Assembly: GCA_963754655.1 (NCBI GenBank)
Contig: CAVWGN010000001.1
Span: forward strand, 288,001 to 352,000
DNA from: an uncultured Chlamydiae bacterium
GTDB taxonomy: Bacteria; Chlamydiota; Chlamydiia; Chlamydiales; Parachlamydiaceae
DNA: 64,000 bases
Direction of reading: 5' to 3'
The position numbers and the translations under genes are program-made. Positions within the stretch are counted from its first letter, which is position 1. Every line of letters begins with the position of its first letter. Below the pieces are notes generated by a model. The model did no database searches, was not told the DNA's origin, and worked only from the letters and a program-made list of their open reading frames with translations. Shown here piece by piece: positions 55,308-64,000 of the stretch.

Positions 55308-55465
55308 TTTTCCTCGTTTTCTTCAACTTTTATCGTATCAATAAACTGAAGGATTAAATTTTCACTTTTAATTTGTTTTATAACTTTATAATAAACTATA
55401 ATATCGAAATTATCAATTATTATTTGAATTAATCTTTTTTGATTGAAAATAAATTTACGAAAACG

Positions 55466-56194
55466 ATGGCATTTAATTTATCTCAACATGAAATTGCTGT
55501 TTGGACGATTGATTTACCTAAATTTTATGATCTTGCTGACTCTTATATTCTGCTATTGAGTCAAATAGAAAAAGAAATTGCGAATCGTTTCCTATTTCCG
55601 CATTTGAGAAACCATTATCTCATTTCTCATGGAATTATGCGAAAGCTCATTGCCTCTTATCTTGATCAAGATCCTACTCAAATTGAAATAAAGAAAACTT
55701 CTTTTGGAAAACCTTTTATCGCAAATCAATCTTTATCATTTAATCTTTCACATTCTCAAGACTATGCAATGATTGCCTTTGCTTTTGAGCGGGAAGTTGG
55801 CATTGACATTGAATATAAGCGGAAGGAAATTGTAGAGGATGATCTAGCAAGAAGCATTTTATCATTTAGCGAGTTTAAGAAATATCAGGAGCTCTCTTTG
55901 CTACAAAAAATTGATTATTTTTTTATTCAATGGACGCGTAAGGAAGCCTTTCTTAAAGCATTAGGGATTGGACTAAAGGGGGATTTAACACAAATTGACA
56001 TGCCAACTCAATTCAATGATGAATTCAATAATAAATTCTTTGAGATTGCCCCTTATGCTTCTCTCAGTCATTTAAATTGGTTATTAAATAATTTCTTTCC
56101 TTCTTCAAATTATGTCGCTTCCCTGGTTTGTCAATGCAATTCTTTTTTACCTAAAGTAAAATTTTATCATTATACCGAAAATTTGTTTCAGTAA
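55466..56194 (+). CDS. Sfp-type 4'-phosphopantetheinyl transferase
   Basis: FGKP, FNLSHS, VGIDIE and WTRKEAFLKALGIGL. Confidence 0.95.
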   Translation: MAFNLSQHEIAVWTIDLPKFYDLADSYILLLSQIEKEIANRFLFPHLRNHYLISHGIMRKLIASYLDQDPTQIEIKKTSFGKPFIANQSLSFNLSHSQDYAMIAFAFEREVGIDIEYKRKEIVEDDLARSILSFSEFKKYQELSLLQKIDYFFIQWTRKEAFLKALGIGLKGDLTQIDMPTQFNDEFNNKFFEIAPYASLSHLNWLLNNFFPSSNYVASLVCQCNSFLPKVKFYHYTENLFQ

Positions 56195-56199
56195 GCTAG

Positions 56200-57037
56200 G
56201 GAGCGTACCTAAAAGATTAACCATTGTATAATACAAGCGATCGTCAACATTCCTGCATAATTTTGAGCTTTCATTTCGTATCTTATTCCAATACGCCTAA
56301 ATCGTTTTATAAACTGAAAAAAATTTTCTACCAAGCAACGCTCTCTGTAGATATGTTTATCATGTTCAATTAGTTCAGCTCTTGATACTTTGCTGGGTAT
56401 GACTGCTTGACTTCCCATCTTTTCTATAAAATTTCTGATTTCATTTGAGTCGTAAGCTTTATCAGCTATAACATTTTTTGGATTTTTTCCACTGAGTAAA
56501 AGCTTCATTTGAGTGCTCTCGTGTACTTGACCTTCTGTCAAGATAAAATCAATACAACGACCTAATCCATCTGTTACTGCATGAATTTTTGTGGTTGTTC
56601 CGGCCCTTGATTTTCCCATGGCTTCTTCGGCTTTTTTTTTATCCTACAAGCATCTTGATGCGCTTCAACAATTGAGCTGTCTACAGAGTAATTTTCTTCG
56701 TCAATTTCATCTTTTAAAGCTTGCCAAATCGTTTGCCAGATTCCAGCCTTTGTCCATCGATTAAAGCGATTATAACATGTGCTCCAAGGACCATACTTGG
56801 GTGGTAGATCCCTCCAAGCGGCTCCTGTTCTTAAAATCCAAATAATGCCTTCTAAAATCTTACGATGAGGCCGACTTGGTCTGCCCCAATATCCTCGTTC
56901 TTTTGGCAATAAAGGTTTTATTTTTATCCATCTTTCATTAGTTAATACTATCCTACTCATTCAAATTTCCCCCTTGTTTTATCAGAGAAAATTATAAATC
57001 ATAAGAGTTATTATTTTAAATCTTTTAGGTACGTTCC
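56200..57037 (-). mobile_element. IS5-family insertion sequence (IS427-like group), apparently intact
   Basis: Terminal IRs GGAGCGTACCTAAAAGATT / AATCTTTTAGGTACGTTCC; CTAG on both sides (56196-56199, 57038-57041); two overlapping transposase ORFs. Confidence 0.93.
56209..56960 (-). CDS. IS5-family transposase, orfA (56574-56960) + orfB (56209-56619) joined by a -1 shift at A9G
   Basis: WILRTGAAWRDLP, VDSS, TTKIHAVTD, ADKAYDS and RCLVENFF; slippery run seen as T9 at 56632-56640. Confidence 0.9.
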
Positions 57038-57099
57038 CTAGTACTCCATTACATGAGTTTTTCGCTCTGGGTTCTAGGTGAGGGGATATGGACCCACCG

Positions 57100-57981
57100 T
57101 TCGGTCGCCCTCCGGGCTCGGTCACGGTGGGCTAGGAACAGTCGTCCTCCGGACTCTAGCGGCATTATCAAAATGCCTTGACTAGCATTCTAGCAGCATT
57201 AACAAACATCTTATTACCAAACACCTTACCTAACATTCAATGGCTTCTACATTGCTGCTAGAGTCCGGAGGACGACTGTTATTAGCCCACCGTCGGGACT
57301 TAACAAAGAACTGTTTTGGACTTGATATTCGTCGCATCAATTTAACAACACCACGCCTGTAATAGACTTTAGAGGCATATTTCCCGAAAATGACGCGAAA
57401 AACATCAAGCCCAAAACAGTTCTTTGTTAAGTGCCGGCATATGGCTAGGTAATCGGAATTTTTATCTTTGTTTTTGCAATGTTGCTTGATCCATATCTTT
57501 TCCCTCAGCGACGAGCGGCGTTAGCCGCGCATGGATAGTAGCCGTGGGTGTAGGCGGAGCCGGAACCCACGGTTACCCAAAAAACAAATTTGAGCCACGT
57601 TAGTGGCGTAGCATTCGTTTAAATAAACATTGCTCCACAATCACATTTCCTACGCCACTAACGTGGCTTCATTTTTTTTACCATACACCGTGGGTTCCGG
57701 CTTCGCCTACACCCACGGCTACTATCCATGCGCGGCTAACGCCGCTTGAGCGACAAATTTAGCTTCTGGAGTTTGCCAGAAGCATTTCGTTCCTAGCCTA
57801 TGGCCGGGACTTAACAAAGAACTGTTTTGGGCTTGATGTTTTTCGTGTCAATTTTCGGGAAATATGCCTCTAAAGTCTATTACAGGCGGGGTGTTGTTAA
57901 ATTGACGGGACGAATATCAAGCCCAAAACAGTTCTTTGTTAAGTCCCGGCCCACCGTGACCGAGCCCGGCGGGCGACTGAA
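57100..57981. repeat. Palindrome D, interrupted by the 660-bp module
   Basis: The left arm TTCGGTCGCCCTCCGGGCTCGGTCACGGTGGGCT...GACTCTAGC pairs with the right arm only after removing 57292-57955. Confidence 0.85.
57292..57950. mobile_element. About 660-bp composite MITE (B-C-B module), inverted copy, 5-bp TSD CCACC
   Basis: Near reverse complement of 32711-33371; CCACC at 57287-57291 and 57951-57955. Confidence 0.9.
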
Positions 57982-58135
57982 TGTTTCGCGTAGCCTACGC
58001 TTATCTCTTACCTTAACGCATAGGAATTTAAAACCATCCCAATAGGCAAAAAAACTCATGTAATGGAGTACTAGCGCCCAGAGACAATGTCATGCGTCGG
58101 TTCCATGAGGTCAATTAAAGTGCAAAGATTAACAA

Positions 58136-60496
58136 TTATTGATTCATTAAAATGAGGGTCTGCTGAGTAGGCCCTGAAAGAAGGGAAGTTGCACGGCCTT
58201 CTACCCAATCTTGATGCTGATCTCGATAATGAGGAGAGAGCGGATGACCGCTTTGGCCACAAGGCATTTGTAAAATGCCCTCCTTCTCATTTCCTGGAGC
58301 TACAACGAGTCTTTGTGAAGCCCCCTCCGTAGAGCTTATAACGCGCGGAACCCAATAATCTCCCGAAATAGAATCGGGTTTCATATTCAAAAAAACATCT
58401 GCTCCCGGAATCGCTCCGCTCAATGGATGAGAAATTGCCATTGTATTTCTTTTGCCCCATGTCTGTTCCTTTATTTTACCAGGAGGGGTTTTCTCTATCA
58501 TTTCATCTATAAAACTTAAAAGTTCCTTTTGCCAACTTCCATATTTCGGATTCGCAAGATAGTCCGGTTGTTGAGAGGCAATCAACCAAACAGGTTCTTC
58601 AAAGTCAAAGTGAGAAGCATGAAAAGAGGGATAAGCTAAAAAACAGGGTTTGAGAATTCTTTTAAGAACCTGTTGATAAACTTGTGCGCGAAATGAACGT
58701 ATCCAATAATAAGCAGCGGATTGAGCGGAAGCATGACCCTCCCAAGTGGAAATAACTTCTAAAAGTTCTTTTCTTTTTCCTTCCAAAAAGGGTGTCTTTT
58801 GAAGCGTTTGCATGAAAAGTTGATGCCACCTTTGAAAGAAAAAAGCTTCATCATCTAATTGAATAGATAACATCTTTTGTAATGTAAAATTAGAGGTTTC
58901 ATTCAAGCGACGTTGAATTTGATAGGCCCTTATTCCATTAATAAAATAGCTGCTGGACATCAGAGGATTTTTAGCAATATCTAGAGTGCGATTATTTGCT
59001 GTCCATAAAATCCCGTCTTTAGGATTCACAATTTTAGGATAGGAGCTCGGATCCATTTTTCCCAGCCATTGACAAGAAGGATCTTGCAACAAGATAGGAA
59101 GAGTGCCATCGAATCCCTGTCTCTCTGGCAGAGTTCCCACTAAAGTCCAGCCAATGTTCCCTTCACGATCGGCTAATAAACAATTTAAAATAGGCATTTT
59201 TATTTGCGGAATCTTGGCTAATGCCTCCTCAACTGAAGAAGCATTCTCTAGTTCCATGAGCTTTAAATTTAAACATTCAGGATCGTGGGCAATCCATTTT
59301 AGAGCAATGGGTTGATCAAAAAAATGATTGGCAAGCAAGGGTCCCCATTCTGTATCTGAAAATTCAATAATGTCAGGACTTTCTCCTTTAATGAAAATCA
59401 CTTCCTTGCGCTTGATCAGGGGTTTCCAACCTTCTACCGTCAAATAGTTCTCTTGATTTTCTGGATGAAGAGTGACCATGGCAATGTCTGCTGTATCCAG
59501 ATAAGCATTGGTAAATCCCCAAGCAATTTGGCCATTGCTTCCACAAATCATTAACGGCATGCCAGGAAGTGTCAATCCACAAATATCAACTTTATGAGAA
59601 TTTAAATTAAGGAAACGCGCCCTATACCAAATGGTTGGAACTGATAGACCAAGATGCATGTCACACGCAAGGATAGCTTTGCCATCTTTTGTCTTTTTTC
59701 CACTGACTGCCCAGTGATTGCTTCCTCCTAAGTGAGGCGCGTCTGCTTGAATTGGAATTTCCTCCATTGAGTGAACATCAAAGGAGTTCAAATAAGAGAA
59801 ATCTTCAGGAGGAGGAATAGGCACATAGGGGATTTTGCTTCCATCCAAAGGAGCGTCCCAAGGAGATCCCTGATGCAGAAAAAAATGACTAACGGAAGAA
59901 GGAAGCAGTCGATGCAAATATCCCTTCATTAAATCTTTTTCTCCTTCCGCATCTTGCAATTCGAAAAACAGATTTAATCCGACTAGTAAACTATCTTCTG
60001 GCTTCCAAGGTTGTGGAGAAGTGAAGAGCAGAAAATACTCAAATGGCTTTGCTTGTAAATGGGATAATCCCTGGTTGACTCCATGAGAATAAGCCTGCAA
60101 AATCTCTTGTTCTTCATGTGTTAATTGAGACCACATTTGTTTTGCGACCCGTCGAAGAGCATGGTATCGCCTTTTCTTATCAAATTCTAATGCAACTCTT
60201 CCCACTAACTCTGCTAGCTCTCCACTTGAGGCTCTTCGCAAGAGATCCATTTGAAAGAATCTTTCTTGAGCATGTAAAAATCCCAAAGCTTGCGCGATAT
60301 CTTCTCGATGGGAGGCCTGAATGGTAGGAATTCCTAATTGATCTCTATCAATGATCACTTGTTGTTTTAATCGGTCTAATGACAGATGACCTGTATGCAA
60401 GGGAAGGCTAGCGCGAAAGAGAAGGAGGATTCCTATTAAGCAGGCCAGCATGATTGCTGTGAAGATCATTAAGGCTTTCAACACATATTTTTTCAT
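58136..60496 (-). CDS. Penicillin acylase family (Ntn-hydrolase, peptidase S45) with N-terminal membrane anchor
   Basis: GFLHAQERFFQMDLLRR, beta-chain start GGSNHWAVSG, ACDMHL, TANN and GQSGHPLSPHYRDQ. Confidence 0.95.
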   Translation of the reverse strand: MKKYVLKALMIFTAIMLACLIGILLLFRASLPLHTGHLSLDRLKQQVIIDRDQLGIPTIQASHREDIAQALGFLHAQERFFQMDLLRRASSGELAELVGRVALEFDKKRRYHALRRVAKQMWSQLTHEEQEILQAYSHGVNQGLSHLQAKPFEYFLLFTSPQPWKPEDSLLVGLNLFFELQDAEGEKDLMKGYLHRLLPSSVSHFFLHQGSPWDAPLDGSKIPYVPIPPPEDFSYLNSFDVHSMEEIPIQADAPHLGGSNHWAVSGKKTKDGKAILACDMHLGLSVPTIWYRARFLNLNSHKVDICGLTLPGMPLMICGSNGQIAWGFTNAYLDTADIAMVTLHPENQENYLTVEGWKPLIKRKEVIFIKGESPDIIEFSDTEWGPLLANHFFDQPIALKWIAHDPECLNLKLMELENASSVEEALAKIPQIKMPILNCLLADREGNIGWTLVGTLPERQGFDGTLPILLQDPSCQWLGKMDPSSYPKIVNPKDGILWTANNRTLDIAKNPLMSSSYFINGIRAYQIQRRLNETSNFTLQKMLSIQLDDEAFFFQRWHQLFMQTLQKTPFLEGKRKELLEVISTWEGHASAQSAAYYWIRSFRAQVYQQVLKRILKPCFLAYPSFHASHFDFEEPVWLIASQQPDYLANPKYGSWQKELLSFIDEMIEKTPPGKIKEQTWGKRNTMAISHPLSGAIPGADVFLNMKPDSISGDYWVPRVISSTEGASQRLVVAPGNEKEGILQMPCGQSGHPLSPHYRDQHQDWVEGRATSLLSGPTQQTLILMNQ

Positions 60497-60500
60497 TCAA

Positions 60501-61919
60501 TCATTTTCCTTGAGATAAGACTAGGATATCAATTTTGGTCGAGAACTTTTTGCATGGTTTTCTTTCTCCCTGACATTGCATTTCATCTCTATAAATGAGT
60601 TCAATTAGAGGAGCTAAAGAAAGCCGCTTATACAGATCAGGCGTGATTTGCATCACTAAATGGGGATTAAATTGATAAAATTGGATCCAGGGTAATCCAA
60701 GATCGGATTGATCTTCAACAATTTGATAGTGCTTATACCCTTTCGGTAACAAAGAGCGATTTATTAAAAAAATGATGCTATTGGCAGGAATTGGAATGTC
60801 TAAATCTTTTAATAAAGTGAAGCCGCCATCTCTCTTAGTGACGCGAAAATAATGGATTGCATTGTAATCGGAGCTCATTTTAAATTTTTGTTGTAAATGA
60901 GAGGCAAAAATCGTCAAACTATCATGAAAAGGAATTTCAAAAATTTCCACATTCTGCCTTTCTGGCCATACATTAATATTTTTTAAAGGAAAATCAGGAA
61001 GGCTCTTTTCACCCAATGGCTTCAATTTGATCCCATTAGAATAGGCAATATCTTCTTCCTTTAAATCAGGTCGCATCAGGGAAAGTTCTTTTGCCTGTTG
61101 ATCGAGATTGTCTTCCTCTTTTTTATCAATTAAGCCCCGCAAAACCATGCTGATGCGCTGTCCTTTAGAGGATCCAGCTTGTTCTGTTCCATTCACATCC
61201 TCCGGAGATAAAACAGTGTGATAAGGAAGAAGAGCTGCGCCAGGATCTGTAGGACAATTGGATTCTTGATAGGTGATAGGTTCAACAGAAAACATGTTGA
61301 CTTCATCTTTGGGAAGCAAGGAAATTAAAAAGCGATCGTGACCAATAGGATCATGAAAAAGTGTTCCCGAAATTGTGAAATCAGCCATGTCCCAGTCAAT
61401 TAACGCTAAGTCGTGAACGAGAGCATAGTGTTGCTCTGGATGGAAATGCTCTTGTATATATTTAAACTGCCGAGGAAAGCTATCGCGATGAAAGGAGTGT
61501 GCATCATGGCTGACAATGAAATTAATTTCTCTAGTGACTCCCATGAGATGAATATTGAAGATTTTTTCAACAATCTCTTTGGCTTTTTGCGCATATTCAT
61601 TGAGAACTTTTTGTCCTGTTGGATCTTGAATTTCTGAGGATAGTTGAGATCCCTCTCCCCCTTCAGGCAAAATAGAAGCAATCGCAGACATTTCTGTTGT
61701 TCTTGGATTAAAATAGGTATCGGGCACTAATTTAATTTGCCTTGCATTAATTTGTTTAATTAATTGTTGTCCGATCTCATGCTTTTCGGGTGTCATATAA
61801 AAATAAGTCTTTGTTTGACCAAATTTAATCACCCAGATGTCTTGATTGTTAAGATGACCTGGTAAGCTTGGAAAATAAGAGGTGATAGGTAAAGAGGAAG
61901 AAGAAAGGAGGGGGTTCAT
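60501..61919 (-). CDS. Hypothetical protein, putative 2OG-Fe(II) oxygenase
   Basis: ATG at 61919 overlaps the upstream TGA; FHRD (HxD), distal YHTV and RIS (RxS). Confidence 0.55.
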   Translation of the reverse strand: MNPLLSSSSLPITSYFPSLPGHLNNQDIWVIKFGQTKTYFYMTPEKHEIGQQLIKQINARQIKLVPDTYFNPRTTEMSAIASILPEGGEGSQLSSEIQDPTGQKVLNEYAQKAKEIVEKIFNIHLMGVTREINFIVSHDAHSFHRDSFPRQFKYIQEHFHPEQHYALVHDLALIDWDMADFTISGTLFHDPIGHDRFLISLLPKDEVNMFSVEPITYQESNCPTDPGAALLPYHTVLSPEDVNGTEQAGSSKGQRISMVLRGLIDKKEEDNLDQQAKELSLMRPDLKEEDIAYSNGIKLKPLGEKSLPDFPLKNINVWPERQNVEIFEIPFHDSLTIFASHLQQKFKMSSDYNAIHYFRVTKRDGGFTLLKDLDIPIPANSIIFLINRSLLPKGYKHYQIVEDQSDLGLPWIQFYQFNPHLVMQITPDLYKRLSLAPLIELIYRDEMQCQGERKPCKKFSTKIDILVLSQGK

Positions 61920-62974
61920 AACTCTCCCGAAATTTTTGAAGGCTTTTGGCACACGAAAGTAAACTCAACGTCCTCGGGAGAGGCAATTTCATCTGTATAT
62001 CCTTTTAAGACTTTAATGGCGCTAAATCCCACCTCTTTTAGCAGACGATGAAATTGTTCTTGAGTATACCAGCGCATTTTCAACGTTTCATGTTCAGTAG
62101 AAATGATTGTTCCTTGATCCAAAATATCATAACGATATTCGGAATATTCAAGTTGTTGATGACGATCAAATTTCGCCTTTTCCCAACATTGAATGGTCAT
62201 GCCATCCGATCTTATTCCTTCTCTACGCAAACGCCATTCATCTTGAATAGGTGCACTGACATAAATATCATGGTCTGTAAGAATAAAGAGAGAAATGAGG
62301 AGAGACCCTTCGGGCTTTAAATGAAGATAAAAACGTCTTAATGCTTCTAGCGCTTCTTTTTCATCATGAATCAACATAAAGGAACCAAAAGGAATAAATA
62401 GTGTGCCATACTGTTTTGGAATGTTTAGCTGCTGCATTGCTTGTTGATAGAGATTTAATTTTAAACCATGCTTTTCAGCTTTCATTCGACATCTCTCAAG
62501 CATATGGGGAGATAAATCAACTCCTTCCACTTGTAAACCTTTTTTAGCATAGGGAATCAACAGTCTCCCATCTCCACAACCTAGCTCTAAAGCAGGTTGA
62601 CTCTGGTTTTTTAAGATGTATTTTTCATATAACTTTGCATCTTCATACTCTTGATTTTCTGGAAACCAAACTCCATAAGACTCCGAGCTCACTCTTCCAT
62701 AGCCTTGCATTTTTCTTTCCCTCCTTTCTAATAGTGATAATTCTCTATCTTTATGTAGACAATGCTTTGCAAAAAGATCCACAATCAGCTCTTCTTGTTG
62801 TCTGTAAACCTTGCTTTGTTGCAATTTATCCAACTTTTTATCTTTCGGATGTGGAGTAGAAAAAAAATGCTGGGTAGGAAGGATGAGCTGCTTTTGATTT
62901 TTTCTAAAAGACATTCTTCTGAATCGCTGAAATTCATGCAACGGTTGTGAGAAATGAATTCTGGATATTCTCAT
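61916..62974 (-). CDS. Class I SAM-dependent methyltransferase with N-terminal extension
   Basis: ALELGCGDGRL, GVDLSPHML and HLKPEG; ATGA overlap with the NRPS stop. Confidence 0.92.
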   Translation of the reverse strand: MRISRIHFSQPLHEFQRFRRMSFRKNQKQLILPTQHFFSTPHPKDKKLDKLQQSKVYRQQEELIVDLFAKHCLHKDRELSLLERRERKMQGYGRVSSESYGVWFPENQEYEDAKLYEKYILKNQSQPALELGCGDGRLLIPYAKKGLQVEGVDLSPHMLERCRMKAEKHGLKLNLYQQAMQQLNIPKQYGTLFIPFGSFMLIHDEKEALEALRRFYLHLKPEGSLLISLFILTDHDIYVSAPIQDEWRLRREGIRSDGMTIQCWEKAKFDRHQQLEYSEYRYDILDQGTIISTEHETLKMRWYTQEQFHRLLKEVGFSAIKVLKGYTDEIASPEDVEFTFVCQKPSKISGEL

Positions 62975-64000
62975 AAGTGTTGAGCCTCCAAAGAATGATT
63001 TGTTCGACTTTCAAGCTCATGAACAATTTGCTTAATTGCCAATAAGTAATGTTTTTGCCATTCGTGCATCGTTGCTTCTTCAAAAGAGTGCGTATCATAA
63101 CAAATGGAAAGGGTTAATCGATCTTCCATAATGATGGCATTGACCTCAATAAGATGAGGAACTGGATTACGCGGATCGGTTAGATTGGCAAATGTTTCTC
63201 GACAGTTTGACAAGAGACTCTGCGATCCTTGAAGCAAATCGGATCCTACACGGCCGAAATAATTAAATAAAATTTCAGGAGCTAAGGCTTGAAGTTGTGG
63301 GTGTTGATGATGATATTTAGCTACACCAAAATGAAAGTCATTTGGAGCAATCTGCCGTAAATGCTGACGAATGGATAATAATGTCTCCATTAGGCTCGGT
63401 GCTTCTTCTATTGAGAAAGGAAAGAGTGTGGTCAACCAACCCACCGTGCGGCCTACATCAACATGTGGAATGTTTTCTCGCCCATGTCCCTCCAAATCTA
63501 AGAGTAATCGACTCATTTTAAATTGTTGTTTTAAAGAGCTAAATAAAGCAGTGAGGAGAAGATCATTGACATTGGTATCAAACACTTGATGCACCGACAT
63601 CAACTGACGTGTAAATTCCGCATCAAAATGCAACGACACTTCTTTATAATATTGAGACTGATTGCAAGGGCGTTGTTTCTCCGCAATGGAGGGATGATCT
63701 TTTAGCTGCAAGGCTAGCCAATAATCAATGTTTAATTGTTGAGGCTTCAATTCATGAAGAGTCAATGCATAATTAACCCAAGAATCGGTTGTGAGAAGTG
63801 GAGGTGGATTTAAGTGATGCTGGTAGAGCAACTCAATGTCTTCGACAAGATAACGCCAAGAAACTCCATCAATGAGAAGATGATGAACAGCAATAAATAA
63901 ACGCTGTTCCTGATGATTGAGTTGAAAAATCACCGCAGCAAAAAGAGGTCCTGTAAAAAGATTAAAACTTTCTTGTCGTTTTTGTGTGATCTGCAAAATC
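62971..64000 (-). CDS. NRPS C-terminus: epimerization domain (5' part lies outside the window)
   Basis: E-domain core motifs HHLLIDGVSW, DLLLTAL, LEGHGRE, RTVGWLTTLFP and FNYFG; frame open to the window edge; no TE or reductase domain before the stop. Confidence 0.9.
   Translation of the reverse strand, partial: ILQITQKRQESFNLFTGPLFAAVIFQLNHQEQRLFIAVHHLLIDGVSWRYLVEDIELLYQHHLNPPPLLTTDSWVNYALTLHELKPQQLNIDYWLALQLKDHPSIAEKQRPCNQSQYYKEVSLHFDAEFTRQLMSVHQVFDTNVNDLLLTALFSSLKQQFKMSRLLLDLEGHGRENIPHVDVGRTVGWLTTLFPFSIEEAPSLMETLLSIRQHLRQIAPNDFHFGVAKYHHQHPQLQALAPEILFNYFGRVGSDLLQGSQSLLSNCRETFANLTDPRNPVPHLIEVNAIIMEDRLTLSICYDTHSFEEATMHEWQKHYLLAIKQIVHELESRTNHSLEAQHL

Follow-up and report, generated by a model that had tools for sequence, protein, structure and literature searches.

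How does a peptide leave a nonribosomal peptide synthetase (NRPS) that ends in an epimerization (E) domain and has no thioesterase (TE) domain after it? The question arises at the right-hand end of a 64,000-nucleotide stretch from an uncultured environmental, host-dependent Chlamydiae bacterium of the Parachlamydiaceae (GenBank assembly GCA_963754655.1, contig CAVWGN010000001.1; G000:C1:288001-352000 in our genome set, hereafter the window). Here the 3′ part of such a gene (63999 to 62971, open at the window edge) is followed by genes for a methyltransferase (MT), a putative oxygenase and an N-terminal nucleophile (Ntn) acylase, all four on the minus strand. In the source genome, which comes in two contigs and is 96.7% complete, the window covers just the tail of a 24-kb operon: five closely packed same-strand genes, from a KamA-family aminomutase through the KS-ACP-C-A(MT)-T-E gene, extend upstream of the window edge, and the reading frames of all operon genes are intact. 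What a first-pass annotation had taken for a plain NRPS is actually a hybrid of a fatty acyl-AMP ligase (FAAL), a polyketide synthase (PKS) with acyltransferase acting in trans (trans-AT), and an NRPS. We conclude that this assembly line is very probably complete and releases its product without a TE. At a probability of roughly 45%, we propose that the product is an acyl-β-Lys (or β-Arg)-ketide-ketide-N-methyl-Asn chain freed by Dieckmann closure as a tetramic acid.

The operon genes, in order, are (coordinates on contig G000:C1 outside the window, window coordinates inside it):
G000:C1 370481-369303, minus strand, outside the window: KamA-family (KamA-like) aminomutase, 392 aa.
G000:C1 369276-367405, minus strand, outside the window: acyltransferase (AT) fused to a predicted type II thioesterase, 623 aa.
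G000:C1 367448-362187, minus strand, outside the window: FAAL-ACP-C-A-T, 1753 aa, first adenylation (A1) pocket D-T-E-N-I-G-T-S-I.
G000:C1 362179-358406, minus strand, outside the window: trans-AT KS-KR-ACP, 1257 aa, Cys in place of the catalytic Tyr of the ketoreductase (KR).
G000:C1 358398-350971 (whole gene), minus strand: hybrid KS-ACP-C-A-T-E with an N-methyltransferase (N-MT) between a2 and a3 of the A domain, 2475 aa.
Window 62971..64000, minus strand: terminal E-type domain of the hybrid, assigned by E motifs and solved-structure matches.
Window 61916..62974, minus strand: class I SAM methyltransferase of 352 aa (264 aa if translation begins at Met89, 62710); PF13649.
Window 60501..61919 (alternative start 61952), minus strand: tandem double-stranded β-helix protein, likely an Fe(II)/2-oxoglutarate (2OG) oxygenase, 472 aa, Pfam-less.
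Window 58136..60496, minus strand: Ntn-hydrolase acylase of the penicillin amidase family, 786 aa; PF01804, E-value 1e-148.

The terminal domain carries the E motifs HHLLIDG (63885), EGHGRE (63492), RTVGW (63450) and FNYFG (63267) and is preceded by a GGDSI-type carrier. The HHxxxD histidine, the E4 glutamate, E5 and E7 are present and E6 (PxxGxGY) is degenerate; the first-pass annotation was right that the protein ends at an E domain but not that its motif set is full. Its ten best solved matches include BacC, PvdL, GrsA, TycA and TycB, at E-values of 1e-53 to 1e-44, and the matches after this group fall to 1e-13 or weaker. By its motifs the domain is a predicted epimerase, with formation of a D-residue predicted accordingly. 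A single-sequence fold of the domain (pLDDT 39.6) was set aside. Elsewhere in the same family (L040:8331-13115, genome G017), a C-A-T-E NRPS with an Asn-like pocket stands by itself, without a surrounding cluster.

A search with the last 1326 residues of the hybrid returned, among the best 120 of 7989 matches, 17 orthologues besides the query at 46-52% identity over at least 96% of the region, 15 of them full length (2429-2488 aa) and two partial. Every orthologue stops at the E domain, at the same point, and keeps the catalytic His and Glu motifs; HHxxxDG is intact across all that were aligned. A TPSD/COM-type donor tail was found in none of the 18 hybrids (query included) but in 22 of 32 other terminal-E NRPSs listed, and the E6 motif likewise in 0/18 against 28/32. 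None of the 18 has a TE motif near its C-terminus. In a quick tree, 16 hybrid termini form one clade within E domains (support 98), and a tblastn search of the source genome found only the C and E domains of this cluster (two C, one E). A shared E terminus in orthologues that lack the tail points to a fixed design, neither damage nor hand-off to a partner, which upholds the idea of an intact, conserved line with non-canonical release.

How widely is this design kept? Across 401 genomes drawn from the phylum, the E domain was matched in five (threshold 1e-60) and the acylase in 13 (threshold 1e-40), all five lying within the 13. In a sixth genome, G387, a contig end truncates the E domain, after which come two MT genes and the acylase; a seventh, G061, carries the line on one contig. 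G061 is labelled Verrucomicrobia; it has tandem chlamydia-like nucleotide translocases, by which we infer it to be chlamydial. The window's own chlamydial origin, proposed earlier, is supported by four nucleotide-translocase matches in the genome and by locus L023, labelled Parachlamydiaceae, whose gene set equals that of L019 from the same-family genome G026. Since the genomes are related and often fragmented, counts are not independent, and absences here mean "not found". By sequence, the cluster family is conserved over at least three chlamydial families, with natural variants that have no TE, no acylase, no AT or a different starter. In G226 the NRPS front end is longer, no KamA lies close by, a P450 is present and the hybrid is frameshifted, while the PKS, an MT, the TE, a phosphopantetheinyl transferase (PPTase) and the acylase are shared. 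This variant (L041-L043, G226:C10), whose frameshift falls after the KS, also carries arginase-family, MATE and MFS genes. The rickettsial Ca. Megaera venefica (G064; L026/L057, L036) has the oxygenase, a 149-aa KamA stub, an MFS gene and the acylase, and the hybrid was not found in it; these remnants suggest transfer between endosymbiont phyla. Separately, contigs C405, C203 and C125 of G301 hold very large multi-module PKS ORFs of up to 8560 aa.

A TE does exist in the operon, upstream of the window and fused to the AT; the claim that no further NRPS or TE follows holds downstream only, and the genome has no partner NRPS. The TE has Ser and His motifs, its nucleophile is Ser in all five aligned TEs, and among its relatives of known structure are the surfactin TE subunit, YbtT and RifR, which we take to be type II editing enzymes. 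It is a type II TE by sequence. The gene is co-encoded in G000, G062, G063, G226, G387 and locus L028, but G026 and G061, two of the seven genomes carrying the line, have no PF00975 match over cut-off. In G061, with the whole line on one contig, another MT occupies the TE slot; in G026, KamA runs straight into the FAAL-NRPS and the slot is empty. These two genomes support TE-independent release and disfavor the TE as a required release enzyme. The AT-TE fusion was seen in G000 only, the five other genomes searched having FabD-sized matches on other contigs. A free-standing TE-like protein with the Cys-Asp-His triad of TrdC and NcmC was not found in the cluster.

What the line builds can be predicted from its domains. 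The A1 pocket reads D-T-E-N-I-G-T-S-I in five of six sequences and D-T-E-D-I-G-T-S-I in the sixth, and its best single-domain solved match is ApnA A1, which presumably prefers Arg. Aligned to 2a5h, the aminomutase has CxxxCxxC, an Arg and two Asp that we take to bind substrate, and a Lys that presumably binds pyridoxal phosphate (PLP). It scores below cut-off with the lysine (TIGR03820, 456 against 525), arginine (392 against 600) and glutamate (420 against 650) models; as it retains the lysine-aminomutase residues, β-Lys is favored over β-Arg. Both ketosynthase (KS) domains carry full triads; in the last KS, the Cys and the two His are conserved throughout the 19 orthologue rows spanning it (one a duplicate), so that it should elongate. 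The KR of the first PKS module keeps its cofactor motif, but 45 of the 47 proteins aligned (from 120 listed) have Cys where the catalytic Tyr should be, and the domain may not reduce with the Tyr gone. The second PKS module has no KR, so that a β-keto acyl chain would reach the last module. There, of the 22 orthologue rows aligned (one a duplicate), 21 have the A2 pocket D-L-T-K-I-G-E-V-G and the remaining one has I in place of V; we assume that Glu at its code position marks Asn rather than Asp, and predict an Asn-type domain. In excerpts of the literature, this code is mentioned in the Asp/Asn section of PMC12283262, and the A1 D-x-E pair binds diamines in PosA-type A domains (PMC10522769). 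The MT inserted between a2 and a3 of A2 matches the type V backbone N-methylation motifs given in the accessible part of PMC8341866, where TtbB, of the thalassospiramide cluster, is the reference for such insertions.

Put together, FAAL would load a fatty acid, and the aminomutase would supply β-lysine (second choice β-arginine), to be acylated in module 1. Two trans-AT KS modules would add two malonyl units, and the last module would add Asn and N-methylate its backbone nitrogen. The terminal E-type domain would probably epimerize this residue, and would promote or merely permit Dieckmann closure of the β-ketoamide onto the thioester. The chain would leave as an N-methyl 3-acyl tetramic acid, in the manner proposed for EfiE of the epifadin system, and the molecule so built would probably be fatty-acylated and antibiotic-like. 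The type II TE would only edit, the stand-alone MT and the oxygenase would be optional tailoring enzymes, and the membrane-anchored acylase would strip the fatty acid outside the cytoplasm. We rank a tetramate first because an elongating KS without KR, followed by an amino-acid module, yields a β-ketoamide.

The closest characterized layout is that of epifadin. Its plasmid was among seven records covering at least 80% of the hybrid in a plasmid search, whereas the Brevibacillus laterosporus, Bacillus thuringiensis and Clostridium plasmid loci are different clusters. According to excerpts of PMC11310079, the efi cluster lies on Staphylococcus epidermidis pIVK83, and a terminal condensation-like domain of EfiE is proposed for Dieckmann release, citing malonomycin. 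The hybrid matches EfiE by blastp at 31% over residues 8-1378 and 24% over 1589-2465. Both systems combine an NRPS with a trans-AT PKS, end in KS-ACP-C-A(Asx)-PCP and an E-related domain with no TE domain, share a similar short N-terminal docking segment, and have a stand-alone AT, TE and PPTase. The final module thus has the layout of an epifadin/malonomycin-type tetramate line (elongating KS, no KR, no terminal TE), EfiE being the hybrid minus the inserted MT. Here, in contrast, the line has a FAAL and aminomutase starter, an inserted N-MT, a Tyr-less KR, and a Glu in the A2 code where Asp-predicted EfiE has His; an oxygenase and an acylase accompany it, long polyene modules are missing, and its operon encodes no ABC exporter. 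The terminal domain of EfiE (L050:19974-26366) carries motifs of the E5 and E6 type and, in the quick tree, sits on a long branch among E domains; it looks like a degenerate E domain. Asn-derived tetramates exist, bripiodionen among them, in excerpts of PMC10956176.

Several points weigh against the tetramate. The His and Glu motifs, kept in the hybrid, are gone from the end of EfiE, while the hybrid has lost E6; the quick tree does not group the EfiE terminus with the hybrid termini, and the EfiE mechanism is itself just proposed. Bacterial Dieckmann release is normally carried out by TE-like enzymes, as the accessible part of PMC10956176 describes, and the cluster has no Cys-nucleophile cyclase. 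The free lysine side-chain amine is a competing nucleophile, the A-domain codes were read by motif position rather than structural alignment, and the line is known from its genes alone. G026 and G061, moreover, are fragmented metagenome-assembled genomes (MAGs), and the TE may be absent only from their assemblies.

The competing nucleophile underlies the best-surviving alternative, which we consider unlikely: the terminal domain would cyclize the product, the β-lysine side-chain amine (or a free polyamine) attacking the Asn thioester to give a macrolactam of about 14 members or an amide. The A1 D-x-E pocket resembles that of diamine-activating domains (PMC10522769, in part), HHxxxDG is intact in all aligned orthologues, and the G226 variant holds an arginase-family gene. 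E6 loss and the absent tail, however, say nothing of the nucleophile, while a β-ketoamide is the standard tetramate precursor and EfiE, the closest characterized layout, gives a tetramate. Slightly less likely still is that the E domain only epimerizes and the type II TE in trans, or water, hydrolyzes the chain to a linear acyl-peptide-ketide with N-methyl-D-Asn at its end. Intact E catalytic residues, a TE co-encoded with Ser and His motifs in all six loci named above, and a best solved acylase match named D-succinylase agree with hydrolysis; the missing TE of G026 and G061 and the editing character of the solved TE relatives do not. Attack of the Asn side-chain amide on its own thioester, giving an aminosuccinimide, would make a release domain unnecessary and suits an Asn-type code invariant in 22 rows bar one V-to-I change, but it has no precedent in the parts of the literature consulted and Asp-specific EfiE manages without such a route, leaving it quite improbable. 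That the Ntn acylase would do the off-loading itself, or act as a transacylase, is very improbable: its gene closely follows the line in five genomes and sits in the same cluster in a sixth, but its N-terminal anchor speaks against a cytoplasmic location, no match to it turned up in G061, and in five genomes it stands alone. Equally remote is a truncated remnant, or a GrsA/TycA-type hand-off of a D-residue to a partner NRPS elsewhere, both raised in the first-pass annotation: 22 of 32 other terminal-E proteins do carry a TPSD-type tail, the G226 copy is frameshifted and Ca. Megaera holds fragments only, but the hybrid lacks such a tail, its frames are intact, the 15 full-length orthologues among the matches listed end alike, and the genome has no other C domain.

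If the tetramate is made with its fatty acid attached, what does the acylase do? The protein has PF01804 over cut-off and the nucleophile Ser259 at the β-chain N-terminus, as in penicillin amidases, and a hydrophobic N-terminal anchor is seen in all ten clade members scored with their N-terminus (KD19 2.3-2.9). By this feature it is probably exported and membrane-anchored; working outside the cytoplasm, it would serve for trimming the product and not for its release. PvdQ orthology was rejected on a score of 31.8 bits with the PvdQ model NF051460 (cut-off 950) and a position nearer the penicillin/cephalosporin acylase group, in the grouping given in excerpts of PMC13592322. The acylase was kept in the cluster in six of the seven genomes with the line, closely after it in five and elsewhere in the cluster in the sixth; in G061 no PF01804 match was found. 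Of the earlier view of a PvdQ-like, co-conserved acylase, the conservation and the probable export stand and the PvdQ likeness does not.

Five further chlamydiae (G301, G024, G022, G048 and G130) have solo acylases of 44-53% identity among unrelated gene neighbors, and the PKS orthologue was not found in any of them. In the quick tree, the window acylase is sister to the solo one of G301 (97) and that of G026 to the solo one of G022 (99). An acylase kept where the line is missing would suit a protective or a general function, and detoxification becomes as plausible as the acylase-based prodrug maturation first suggested. For the acylase role we regard inactivation or self-protection as an even bet, activation or maturation as possible though doubtful, and a function unrelated to the product as improbable. 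In the same family, a different FAAL-NRPS cluster (L021, G012:C2 at about 1.95-1.98 Mb) has a distant penicillin-amidase gene (26-29%).

Other known systems share parts of this scheme. Colibactin, xenocoumacin, amicoumacin and zwittermicin are also made by hybrid NRPS/PKS systems, in which an Asn module with E domain occurs together with a type II TE and a processing hydrolase anchored in the membrane. Unlike in these N-acyl-D-Asn prodrugs, the Asn-E module here comes last rather than first and the hydrolase is Ntn-fold rather than ClbP-type; among the cluster proteins, to which the search was confined, none matched the ClbP-type peptidase Pfam. The reutericyclin/mutanocyclin (muc) system resembles the scheme proposed here in an acylated tetramic acid and a co-encoded lipid-removing acylase, but MucF belongs to the HXXEE acylases and not to the Ntn hydrolases, and the ring-forming step and the module order differ, the latter on the order we take MucD and MucE to have. 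In that system, deacylation lowers toxicity to the producer (excerpts of PMC9112991). Like PvdQ, PdnM and Tem25 (PMC13592322, in part), our cluster would pair a fatty-acyl starter with a probably exported Ntn acylase; unlike the PvdQ type, it has no evident siderophore receptor. Over full length and among the matches listed, the nearest named non-chlamydial PKS relatives are KS-KR-ACP proteins of Paenibacillaceae (Brevibacillus borstelensis, B. dissolubilis, Paenibacillus curdlanolyticus and P. amylolyticus; 38-39%), which share the Tyr-to-Cys change in the KR. We know of no product for these proteins. Thalassospiramide is the top MIBiG match (0.69) listed in excerpts of PMC9666466 for the NRPS region of the MAG under whose name L024 is recorded; we infer that this region is the present cluster, the match being an automatic nearest one rather than an assignment. 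By sequence, the line resembles an epifadin-type system with lipopeptide-style acylase processing and is outside every characterized family tested.

The two putative tailoring genes follow the hybrid through ATGA overlaps at 62971-62974 and 61916-61919, and a 4-nt gap (60497-60500) precedes the acylase, all as previously described. The MT assignment is supported by PF13649; its best NCBIfam match is a daptide-type MTase, below cut-off. An AGGAGG ribosome site precedes Met89 (62710), which coincides with the start of two orthologues, so that the first overlap may not mark the start used. The N-terminal extensions of three cluster MTs (window 62711-62974; L031:6248-6400; L033:8526-8650) are unrelated to each other, Arg/Ser/Thr-rich and acidic-poor, and may be an unused upstream frame; to us they recall secretion or mitochondrial targeting signals. 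The next protein, noted earlier as a putative oxygenase, is likely an Fe(II)/2-oxoglutarate oxygenase. Its N-terminal domain has H144-x-D146...H234...R255-x-S257, each of the five residues being kept in 35-39 of 51 family members, and a structure search with its model (pLDDT 68) gave 6n1f (Z 9.6, rmsd 4.1, 177 aligned), most of 50 match rows being 2OG oxygenases. It had no Pfam match, Foldseek ranked seed cupins first with poor TM-scores, and a scan of viral contigs gave no match. The gene lies within or beside the cluster in G000, G026, G061, G062, G063 and L028, and its family of 64 representatives reaches beyond the cluster. Of the 51 long members of this Pfam-less family (P0253-P0313), 27 begin with a signal-like sequence; several members contain an extra domain of 280 aa, the metal motif is missing from several, and Glycomyces is the source of one named member.

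Two further features lie beyond the acylase:
Window 56190..58135, no strand assigned: multi-copy transposase element and high-copy palindromic repeats, between acylase and PPTase, outside the pathway.
Window 55439..56194, plus strand: Sfp/HetI-type PPTase, 251 aa.

The PPTase gene adjoins the cluster in relatives as well. In G026 it overlaps the acylase gene; in the window the two are parted by the two-ORF transposase element (56190-57040), which has 24 near-identical chromosomal matches over 500 bp, itself counted, and by a nest of palindromic repeats (56960-58135) with 27-205 blastn matches per 100-bp bin genome-wide. Third-position GC content (GC3) of the eight operon genes is 0.295-0.33, near the genome sample mean of 0.328 (sd 0.043, 576 ORFs), with the PPTase lower at 0.254. 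The operon therefore bears no compositional trace of recent transfer, and recent horizontal acquisition was rejected; despite this unremarkable GC3, none of three same-genus genomes has an acylase match. A search for promoters and terminators gave counts close to those expected by chance (32 vs 22.8 and 9 vs 7.9), an ESM Atlas search gave no usable match, and one DNA sequencing run yielded short, scattered contigs that were uninformative about the operon.

Gene clusters are widespread in chlamydiae (excerpts of PMC9666466), and other chlamydial cluster types are listed in the accessible part of PMC13229535. The literature searched, with most subscription journals outside its coverage, held no chlamydial cluster tied to a product and no description of this cluster family; chlamydial clusters have so far been counted by antiSMASH. 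Taking all of the above one step further, an E domain with intact catalysis would have turned release enzyme, both epimerase and Dieckmann cyclase, in small hybrid lines of chlamydial endosymbionts, and an exported acylase would switch the lipid-tetramate off or on, kept by non-producers, including a rickettsial one, against co-infecting producers. We offer this wider picture tentatively and think it rather unlikely to hold in full. Small (24 kb), intact, conserved and rich in natural variants, the family would offer a chlamydial natural product that is amenable to study and a direct way of testing chain release by E-derived terminal domains, so far a proposal for epifadin and malonomycin. Chemical defense or competition among endosymbionts would thereby become testable.

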